Shown piece after piece: positions 48,300-49,531 of a stretch of DNA of 64,000 bases; the stretch's first letter is position 1, and each line of letters begins with the position of its first letter. The DNA lies in assembly GCA_000806155.1 (NCBI GenBank), contig JWKX01000001.1, positions 739 through 64,738 of the forward strand, read 5' to 3'. The position numbers were made by a program, and so were the translations under genes. The notes below the pieces were generated by a model. That model did no database searches, had not been told where the DNA came from, and saw only the letters and a program-made list of their open reading frames with translations. This DNA is from an archaeon GW2011_AR18 (GTDB lineage Archaea > Nanobdellota > Nanobdellia > SCGC-AAA011-G17 > GW2011-AR18).

Positions 48300-49531
48300 T
48301 TATTTCTTGATAAAAGCCCAGCCTACTAGTCTCCATCTTGTTCCTATTCTTCTTGATATTGCTATCTTGCTTCCCTCTTCAGCACATACTGGTCTTTTTA
48401 GTTTTACAAATATTTTATTCTTCTCTAATGTTGTTACTATTCCTGCTGTTGTTGCAGAATTTACATTTAGCATTAATGGCTCTCCCTTCTTTATTGGTTC
48501 TACTTTTAATTCATCTTTGCTTCCTATTACATTTTCTAATAATTTTGGTTCTAGTTTTAGTTCATTCCATAACTGAGGCATTTTTCCTTCAATTCCTACT
48601 ATTGTCCCGCTTAACTGGTCTCCTTTTACTATTGATGGGTCTAATTTAGTCAATATTGCTATTGATCCTCCTGGTCCTACAAGATCTACACTCTTTCCTC
48701 CAGTTTTTAAACTCTCAACTACTGTATTTATTGGTATATATTTTTCTACCCCTTTGTCTGATATTAATCTTCCAGGGCTTATTTCTATTCTATCTCCTAC
48801 TTTTATTATTCCCTGTTTTAAGCTTCCGCCTAATATTCCACCTACTATTTTTTTAATATCACTCCCTGGTTTGTTTACATCAAAGCTTCTTGCTACAAAC
48901 ATTATTGGATTTTTTGTATTATCTCTATTTGGAGTTTTCATTACATCTTCTATTGCCTCTATTATATAATTGATATTTACATTATATTTTGCTGATACTG
49001 GTATTATTGGTGCATTTTCTGCTATGCTTCCTTTTACAAATTCTCTTATCTTCTCACTGTTTTTTATCGCATCCTCTTTTGTTACTAGGTCTATTTTATT
49101 CTGTATTATTACTACATTTTTTATATCTTCTATCTGTAATGCCATTAAATGTTCTTTTGTTTGTGGTTGTGGACATTCTTCATTTGCAGCTACTAATAAT
49201 AAAGCTCCATCCATTATTGCTGCTCCTGATAACATTGTTGCCATTAATGTTTCATGTCCTGGTGCATCTACAAAACTTACTATTCTCTGTTCTTCACATT
49301 TTTCACACTGTTTTTTTGTTGAATATGTATGTTGATCACATTTGTATATAGGTGCATCTGCATATCCTAATTTTATTGTGATTCCTCTCTTTATCTCTTC
49401 AGAATGTGTGTCTGTCCATTTTCCTGATAGAGCCTGTAACAAACTAGTCTTTCCATGGTCAACATCTTTGGTTTATAAGCAGAAGCTTAGTAATGTCCAA
49501 TTAGACCGATGTTAATGCTAGGTTGTTGCAT
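48300..49531 (-). CDS. eif2g: translation initiation factor 2 gamma subunit (aIF2 gamma), interrupted by a 29-nt intron-like insert
   Basis: Exon 1 (49531-49493) encodes MQQPSINIGLIGH. After a 29-nt insert with an in-frame TAA, the frame resumes as [35 protein letters not shown] ... CEKCEE ... The joined product has the canonical QPxVNIGxVGHVDHGKT N-terminus. The ORF track shows only 48300-49442. Confidence 0.85.
49464..49494 (-). other. 29-nt bulge-helix-bulge-like intron inside aIF2 gamma coding sequence
   Basis: Three equivalent 29-nt boundaries lie within 49464-49494. Removing any restores frame and motif. Proposed fold: GGUC-UAA-UUGG-AC|A-UUAC-[UAAGC-UUCU-GCUUA]-UAAA-CCAA-AG|A-UGUU-GACC. 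The central 4-bp helix UUGG/CCAA is flanked by two 3-nt bulges. Confidence 0.6.

Follow-up and report, generated by a model that had tools for sequence, protein, structure and literature searches.

The gene for the gamma subunit of archaeal translation initiation factor 2 (aIF2-gamma) in archaeon GW2011_AR18 is interrupted within its phosphate-binding loop (P-loop) by 29 nucleotides (nt) that very probably constitute an archaeal bulge-helix-bulge (BHB) intron. The gene lies on the minus strand of the 64-kb stretch analysed here, hereafter the window (64,000 nt of contig JWKX01000001.1, positions 739 to 64,738), and its insert would be another archaeal mRNA intron of the cbf5 type. As in that type, the insert lies within an open reading frame (ORF), is short and ORF-less, and must be removed for the active site to be intact. 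A BHB intron had been proposed in an earlier sequence-only reading of this DNA, and the proposal is now supported by the cleavage rule of the archaeal splicing endonuclease, by relatives with the unspliced text GGA CUU, by recurrence of the insert in 32 aIF2-gamma genes and by covariation. From these observations we infer the occurrence of splicing itself, the enzymes involved and the cleavage chemistry.

Two frames make up the gene. The frame of exon 1 opens at TTG 49564, translates as LKKEKVTQQELMQQPSINIGLIGHY and ends at UAA 49489-49487; the downstream frame, which differs from that of exon 1, continues to 48300. The sequence-only reading had claimed that 29 nt with a TAA split the P-loop and that their deletion, at any of three equivalent boundaries, rejoins GH|VDHGKT (here and below, vertical bars mark junctions or cuts). 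Translation bears this out: the deletion fuses both frames into a 411-amino-acid (aa) protein, and its boundaries can be 49492-49464, 49493-49465 or 49494-49466, because the same bases (A, U) recur beside both junctions. The spliced product matches the NCBIfam aIF2-gamma model NF003077 over residues 11-410 at 605 bits (cutoff 315), and it aligns to the Pyrococcus aIF2-gamma structure PDB 1kk0 without a gap across NIGLIGHVDHGKT. The intron position is phase 1 of the P-loop His codon, and a Shine-Dalgarno-like GGAG (49575-49572) stands 5' of the TTG start. The gene is composed as follows:

49495-49564, minus strand: aIF2-gamma exon 1, assigned by translation, with the TTG start at 49564, 23 codons and C49495 as base 1 of the P-loop His codon.
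49466-49494, minus strand: predicted BHB intron of 29 nt, AUUACUAAGCUUCUGCUUAUAAACCAAAG, delimited according to the BHB cleavage rule; it scores 78 bits with covariance model R1 (see below).
48300-49465, minus strand: aIF2-gamma exon 2, in which AU finishes the His codon and VDHGKT and the remainder follow up to the stop codon.
49487-49489, minus strand: in-frame UAA two codons past the 5' splice site, which ends translation of unspliced mRNA.

The deposited annotation misses the P-loop exon. The truncated ORF at 48300-49442 (minus strand) has the same sequence as GenBank KHO54697.1, an archaeon GW2011_AR18 entry named 'translation initiation factor 2 subunit 3', whose 380 aa are shortened at the N-terminus and have no GxxxxGK[ST] phosphate-binding loop. 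In the protein collection, at least eight clusters of homologues are shortened likewise; standard gene callers therefore mis-annotate such aIF2-gamma genes.

On the minus strand, the insert and its flanks read 5'-GGUC UA A UUGG AC|A UU AC UAAGC UUCU GCUUA UA AA CCAA AG|A U GUU GACC-3'. Two 3-nt bulges (ACA and AGA) are found on opposite strands around a 4-bp helix, the arrangement that defines a BHB. Both flanking helices are present in a relaxed form, with h' consisting of 2 bp, a loop and a 5-bp hairpin, and h of 1 bp, a loop and 4 bp. All elements named in the sequence-only reading (UUGG/CCAA, the 3-nt bulges, UAAGC-UUCU-GCUUA and GGUC/GACC) can be located, the last of them beyond a small internal loop. 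The elements of the fold are:

49501-49507, minus strand: outer helix h, 5' strand, formed by A49501 and GGUC 49507-49504 within exon-1 Gly-Leu codons.
49497-49500, minus strand: central helix, 5' strand UUGG, in exon 1 (Ile codon bases 2 and 3, and GG from the Gly codon), pairing with 49471-49468.
49494-49496, minus strand: 5' bulge A-C|A, with the predicted cut after C49495.
49472-49493, minus strand: inner helix h', with two U-A pairs by the bulges, a 2x2 internal loop and the 5-bp hairpin UAAGC-UUCU-GCUUA (49489-49476).
49468-49471, minus strand: central helix, 3' strand CCAA, in the intron, pairing with UUGG.
49465-49467, minus strand: 3' bulge A-G|A, with the predicted cut after G49466.
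49457-49464, minus strand: outer helix h, 3' strand, with U49464 paired to A49501 and GACC 49460-49457 paired to GGUC 49507-49504.

Archaeal splicing endonucleases cut between the second and third nucleotide of each bulge (PMC2738675, PMC12397907), as illustrated by the ARMAN-2 enzyme's crystal structure with RNA, in which the bond A14|A15 is cut (PMC12397907). Applied to the window, this rule places the cuts after C49495 and G49466, takes out exactly 29 nt and leaves the junction GGA C|AU GUU GAC, which encodes G-H-V-D. The predicted cuts coincide with one of the three frame-restoring boundaries (49494-49466), so that the predicted spliced text, minus 49494-49466, is ...AUUGGAC|AUGUUGACC. In addition, the first bulge base is A at both cut sites, which fits the base stacking seen in the ARMAN-2 enzyme-RNA structure (PMC12397907). 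With cut sites fixed 29 nt apart, the minimal pairing is found by chance at 47 of 127,840 window positions (3.7e-4).

According to the proposed mechanism, the pre-mRNA would pair UUGG of exon 1 with CCAA of the intron between two 3-nt bulges, with the intron hairpin on one side and a helix between exon 1 and exon 2 on the other. The tRNA splicing endonuclease (EndA) would cut after the second base of each bulge, at C49495 and G49466, and an RtcB-type ligase would join GGAC to AUGUUGAC, thereby creating CAU (His) and an intact GHVDHGKT loop. The 411-aa factor would then be translated from the ligated mRNA, and unspliced mRNA would terminate two codons into the intron. DPANN endonucleases with an L3 loop have been tied to tolerance of relaxed motifs and are reported to accompany disrupted tRNA genes (PMC5829648), which makes cleavage of the relaxed aIF2-gamma motif plausible.

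Related genomes, to which the sequence-only reading had looked for a check, carry an insert at this site in 31 further aIF2-gamma genes; the interiors of these inserts vary, whereas the BHB is maintained. Together with the window, 32 distinct genes from genome bins and metagenomes are thus interrupted at the same phase-1 position, by inserts of 14-35 nt (mostly 29-32) in which all three length classes modulo 3 occur. In the protein search, intact homologues of up to 76% identity were accompanied by proteins of 377-387 aa that start exactly after the P-loop, and the DNA behind every one of the latter has an insert at this position. The species-representative bin Nanoarchaeota H52-bin077_1 (L001), from another aquifer, has the same 29-nt insert with two substitutions at 95% protein identity; one of these lies in the hairpin loop and the other converts an A·A mismatch into an A-U pair. 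A metagenome scan with the pattern CC.A..AY plus the start of exon 2 returned 77 loci, and the 32 aIF2-gamma sites comprise the de-duplicated pattern loci and loci found otherwise. Altogether, dozens of independent assemblies from JGI, ENA, NCBI and Logan carry the insert. Chance matches of the pattern in high-GC bacterial DNA served as a negative control and have no matching 5' site.

Four relatives are particularly informative with respect to the splice sites. These are L004, L007, L087 and L088, whose introns have U as their first base, so that GGA CUU stands in the unspliced text. Only cuts at the BHB positions rebuild the His codon (C + AC/AU) there, which fixes the splice sites independently of the window. 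Furthermore, the exon-1 peptide ...QPxxNIGLxG is kept in all 32 intron-bearing genes, whose lineages are 60-75% identical, and purifying selection acts on both exons. In a rough neighbour-joining tree the intron-bearing aIF2-gamma genes are scattered among intronless ones, which suggests repeated gain, loss or transfer.

Covariation was assessed in a plain MAFFT alignment of 31 sites (A2), scored against a hand-drawn structure. Paired cells amounted to 82.8%, compared with 28-52% in slid controls, and the covariation score was 0.222 versus 0.145 in shuffles, none of 500 shuffles matching the observed pairing or covariation. The central helix is paired in 100% of the 31 sequences, and the hairpin pairs covary among homologues (AU/GC/UA/CG). 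The outer closing pair, found as GC (17), AU (11) and GU (1), couples position 1 of the Ile/Val codon with the synonymous position 3 of the His codon across the intron. The covariance model R1, built from A2 and thus from aIF2-gamma sites alone, recovers all aIF2-gamma sites at 53-85 bits. In a 58-site alignment that was fitted to R1, and is for this reason biased towards the structure, paired cells make up 86.7%, 131 cells are changed on both sides versus 42±6.6 in shuffles, and the second central pair is UA in 38 and CG in 16 sites across aIF2-gamma and aIF5B, the second gene in which such inserts occur.

Sequence rules can be read from the same collection. The 5' bulge is AC|A or AC|U in 54 of 54 homologous sites, and the 3' bulge is AGA in 28 and AAA in two of the 30 aIF2-gamma sites tallied, the first four positions at the 3' bulge having been free in the search pattern. 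The Gly codon of the P-loop is GGA at all 54 sites; it is GGC (L086) or GGG (L067) in intronless relatives. An early stop, no later than the third codon when counting starts at the split His codon, is present in 29 of 32 aIF2-gamma introns (3 and 6 in the other frames) and in 16 of 22 aIF5B introns (0 and 3). In-frame stops are present in each of the 22 aIF5B introns and in every aIF2-gamma intron with a length divisible by three. As a result, unspliced mRNA gives only a peptide of about 25 aa, and never a GTPase with a disrupted P-loop.

The metagenome scan also yielded 22 distinct genes for aIF5B (archaeal IF-2) that are split at the homologous ...RQPIVVVLG-H|VDHGKT. Their inserts of 18-58 nt have the same BHB geometry, and most sites read CUCGGAC|A...CCGAAA|AY with UCGG/CCGA as the central helix. 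The three inner pairs by the bulge are 100% paired and comprise four pair types. Furthermore, R1, although trained on aIF2-gamma only, detects the aIF5B sites at 22-43 bits. The scan pattern is blind to EF-1alpha, EF-2 and SelB. The aIF5B loci are:

aIF5B intron loci: L009, L013, L017, L024, L026, L029, L036, L037, L041-L043, L047, L048, L056, L060, L067, L071, L075, L077, L080, L081, L084.

The closest named proteins to one intron-bearing aIF5B belong to Aenigmarchaeota and Micrarchaeota, and the AT-rich loci L009, L017 and L067 resemble Nanoarchaeota sequences; seemingly, both Aenigmarchaeota and part of the Nanoarchaeota have aIF5B introns. On two contigs, aIF2-gamma and aIF5B lie 2.5-4.5 kb apart and only one of the two genes has an intron: L031 (3807-3877, 8293-8362) has it in aIF2-gamma and none in aIF5B, and L067 (1508-1567, 3980-4019) has it in aIF5B and none in aIF2-gamma. 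Such contigs would be compatible with movement of the intron between two near-identical P-loop DNA texts.

Several observations weigh against a BHB intron or lessen the support for it. The scan pattern fixed CC.A and the exon-2 text, and that share of the conservation reflects ascertainment. The motif of the window is relaxed, with a single A-U pair (49501:49464) in the outer helix where it abuts the BHB, compared with 2 bp + 5-6 bp in most relatives and 1 bp + 4 bp in the whole of h here. Using RNAfold, the constrained BHB fold of the window has -13.0 kcal/mol versus -13.2 for the minimum-energy structure, with central-pair probabilities of 0.36-0.62; the centroid structure of the site includes the BHB. 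The BHB is the minimum-energy structure at only 5 of 32 aIF2-gamma sites and at 21 of 22 aIF5B sites; for aIF2-gamma a competing fold, in which the outer helix reaches into the 3' bulge, is favoured over it by 0-3.5 kcal/mol. Thermodynamics was dropped as proof of the aIF2-gamma BHB, since the BHB is seldom of minimum energy there, and covariation was relied on instead. In addition, a scan of about 20 ORFs of the window detected neither EndA nor RtcB; an intron-bearing tRNA in the window implies that the genome has splicing machinery. Finally, in the 90% protein clusters checked, the two full-length members (P0150 and P0167) are chimeric assemblies with foreign N-terminal thirds and not spliced cDNA.

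A second component is linked to the aIF2-gamma insert in many relatives. In 12 of the 32 loci, exon 1 is directly preceded on its strand by an ORF of about 400 aa with LAGLIDADG-like motifs (GDRCGG..., YAGLIEAEGS); its Pfam LAGLIDADG_3 matches are barely above threshold (22.6 and 23.2 vs 22.5). Ten of the 12 are in frame with exon 1 without a stop between them, so that the first stop is the intron's own. This family has only 25 members in 5.8 billion proteins, all of Woesearchaeota/Nanoarchaeia type, and in at least 17 the C-terminus is formed by the exon-1 peptide ...QPE[IV]NIGL[VI]G[HQ]. Members with their own stop also lie upstream of intron-bearing aIF2-gamma genes (L089, L090), and a frameshifted remnant lies upstream of an intronless aIF2-gamma with a diverged P-loop text (L091). 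No PDB relative was found by sequence search. In the window, tblastn detected no homologue of the linked endonuclease, and the adjacency that characterizes collaborative homing is accordingly absent there. The loci are:

Linked LAGLIDADG-like ORFs: L031 (7045-8314), L010 (6663-8001), L011 (78-1359), L062, L049, L004/L005, L012, L020, L057, L059, L066, L021/L022, L089, L090, L091.

A large intron that would house the endonuclease, with exon 1 duplicated, was rejected, as no exon-1-like coding sequence lies upstream of the ORF. More speculatively, and rather less likely than not, the mini-intron may be one half of a composite mobile element. The free-standing LAGLIDADG endonuclease would cut the intronless P-loop DNA GGNCAYGTNGAYCAYGG, the BHB intron would protect the host, and both would spread together. 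A move of the element from one gene to the other would be possible because aIF2-gamma and aIF5B have this DNA text in common, and would explain contigs with an intron in one but not both. Moreover, where the endonuclease ORF has no stop of its own, splicing would decide between the endonuclease and read-on into aIF2-gamma. If true, collaborative homing would here for the first time rest on an archaeal intron that is spliced by proteins, and BHB introns could plausibly spread into protein-coding genes in this way. As a hypothesis on intron origin and spread, the endonuclease link stands outside the core finding, and it gives the emergence and movement of such introns a concrete model that is open to test.

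Two further features concern the vicinity of the intron. The aIF2-gamma start is preceded, at a distance of about 40 nt, by a TATA-like TTTATAAAT at 49603-49611 (minus strand). Where relatives have the endonuclease gene (L004, about 1578-1600), the TATA-like text falls in the conserved C-terminal '[VI]xFI[KN]' motif of the ORF (TTT ATA AAx), and the promoter of the host aIF2-gamma may lie inside the endonuclease ORF. In the window (49457-49507, minus strand) and in homologues, the exon bases GGUCU (Gly-Leu) and AGACC (Val-Asp-His) can pair without the intron. The P-loop coding region would thus form a hairpin with the intron in its loop, which may predispose the site to intron gain.

Four other explanations of the insert were weighed. 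An assembly or sequencing artefact has a negligible probability: nothing specific speaks for it beyond the source being a metagenome-derived genome, and the insert recurs in the independent bin L001 and in the dozens of other assemblies. The public gene calls of 380 aa (KHO54697.1 and cluster members) could be taken to mean that the gene is a pseudogene, or that it encodes a truncated or split protein of 380 aa from 49442, with or without a separate 25-aa peptide. Such a product would be without its GxxxxGK[ST] loop; exon 1, however, has a start codon and a Shine-Dalgarno sequence and is conserved at the protein level across 32 lineages, both exons are under purifying selection, and the same state occurs in a second essential gene, aIF5B. 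A truncated or split product is accordingly regarded as very improbable. Translational recoding, in which ribosomes would bypass the insert or shift frame over it as in phage T4 gene 60, draws on the stop codon right after the take-off region, the nearby hairpin and the essential nature of the gene. It is scarcely credible here, as insert lengths of 0, 1 and 2 modulo 3 leave no single frameshift that works, and the His codon is split as C|AY, with GGA CUU in L004, L007, L087 and L088 and no matching landing codon before GUN GAY. Furthermore, bypass would lose the conserved His.

The insert might also be a DNA-level footprint that shields the P-loop from the adjacent LAGLIDADG endonuclease and is removed without EndA or simply tolerated. 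The dedicated ORF family upstream of exon 1, its rarity among known proteins and its habit of ending in the exon-1 peptide would all suit such a role. This explanation is nonetheless quite improbable, because the insert has the exact geometry of an EndA substrate with covarying pairs, and we know of no other removal route for inserts of 14-35 nt. It addresses the origin of the insert and not its removal, and is in this respect largely compatible with a BHB intron. Two further candidates were ruled out: an intein by the in-frame stops (29 of 32 aIF2-gamma and 22 of 22 aIF5B inserts), and a group I or II intron or other ribozyme by the 29-nt size and the lack of an Rfam match, Rfam 15 giving none at the intron site even at E<=0.1.

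Among known systems, the BHB intron in cbf5 of Crenarchaeota is the closest counterpart (Watanabe 2002; Yoshinari 2006; Yokobori 2009, PMC2738675). It is likewise a short, ORF-less BHB intron within a gene that codes for a protein, inserted in phase 1 in the codon of a catalytic residue with a length of 16-44 nt (PMC2738675). In both systems a critical residue is affected, cuts are predicted to separate bulge bases 2 and 3, relaxed motifs are frequent, the interior varies, and the distribution is patchy with gain and loss. The host gene of the former encodes a pseudouridine synthase, whereas the inserts described here reside in aIF2-gamma and aIF5B. Crenarchaeota also contrast with DPANN archaea of Nanoarchaeota/Woesearchaeota type and, seemingly, Aenigmarchaeota. 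Furthermore, one site is hit here in two paralogous genes, often with a homing-endonuclease gene adjacent. Splicing of cbf5 is backed by cDNA and in vitro proof, and that of aIF2-gamma is predicted from sequence.

The hBHBh' motif of archaeal tRNA and rRNA BHB introns was reportedly set out by Marck and Grosjean in 2003. Such introns share with the present site the two 3-nt bulges around a 4-bp helix, the flanking helices and the size range of tRNA introns (PMC2738675), as well as cleavage by EndA and ligation by RtcB, which are presumed for aIF2-gamma. They differ in that the aIF2-gamma site is in an mRNA without a tRNA body as scaffold, its central and outer helices are codon-constrained on one strand, and it has a conserved in-frame stop. 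The BHB intron of Haloferax volcanii HVO_1309 is another EndA substrate in an mRNA, outside tRNA and rRNA, but is located in the 5' untranslated leader, where no codons are interrupted (PMC7714728).

Similarities extend beyond archaeal BHB introns. Splicing of HAC1/XBP1 by IRE1 and RtcB or tRNA ligase also removes a very short, spliceosome-independent, frame-changing mRNA intron; its endonuclease leaves a 2',3'-cyclic phosphate, a tRNA-type ligase follows, and the unspliced mRNA yields a different, short product. The XBP1 intron is 26 nt long. Unlike the present case, that system uses another nuclease and twin stem-loops rather than a BHB, and it is a proven regulatory switch. Phage collaborative homing by free-standing endonucleases and ORF-less group I introns (PMC3984707, PMC2814812) is comparable in that, in many of the relatives studied here, an endonuclease gene likewise adjoins a gene that an ORF-less intron splits at a strongly conserved site. 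The phage intron is a ribozyme and the one described here a protein-dependent BHB intron; the window itself is without the endonuclease gene, and in the relatives the target of the endonuclease is putative.

The sequence-only reading had named cbf5 as the classic protein-coding case and had held that no such intron was described in an essential translation factor. Its view of their rarity agrees with the full-text literature, in which BHB introns outside tRNA and rRNA were found only in crenarchaeal cbf5 and in the 5' untranslated region of Haloferax HVO_1309; a 2020 paper calls cbf5 the only other example (PMC7714728). Nothing was found on introns in aIF2-gamma or aIF5B, with many subscription papers outside the coverage, so that priority is not guaranteed. 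For more than 20 years, archaeal protein-coding introns rested on essentially one example, cbf5 in Crenarchaeota. The present cases would add a second and a third host gene, both encoding essential translation-initiation GTPases and both in DPANN archaea, with more than 50 natural variants that are enough to define sequence rules. Standard annotation silently truncates such genes, which affects inferences on the completeness and metabolism of DPANN genomes, and other split genes are probably being missed. Dependence of two initiation factors on tRNA-splicing enzymes would also couple translation capacity to RNA processing in a way that can be tested.

The remaining features of the window were surveyed with Rfam at E<=0.1, which detected one tRNA and the signal recognition particle (SRP) RNA and nothing further, and with ARAGORN, which reported no tRNA. 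They can be listed as follows:

41596-41705, minus strand: tRNA-Asp(GUC), 110 nt, with an insert of about 38 nt after position 37; matched by Rfam and missed by ARAGORN.
41950-42747, minus strand: ORF of 265 aa with LAGLIDADG_3 and 'homing endonuclease associated repeat' matches, 245 nt upstream of tRNA-Asp on the same strand.
59783-60054, minus strand: archaeal SRP RNA, 124 bits.
33980-40982, minus strand: run of long ORFs whose order and sizes resemble a split RNA polymerase B plus the A'/A'' subunits, an assignment by size and order alone.
50470-53648, minus strand: PheRS beta and alpha.

The 'unusually intron-rich tRNAs' of the sequence-only reading could not be confirmed, as the window contains a single Rfam tRNA, tRNA-Asp, with one insert. 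For this insert a clean canonical BHB could not be drawn, either by hand or with RNAfold. A window-wide scan for BHB motifs that join ORFs was discarded as uninformative, since relaxed criteria gave 722 candidates in DNA of 30% GC; its best-ranked candidates spanned the intergenic space of neighbouring genes, such as the putative RNA polymerase subunits near 37.7 kb. A DUF192 gene is oriented divergently from aIF2-gamma in the window, as it is in relatives.

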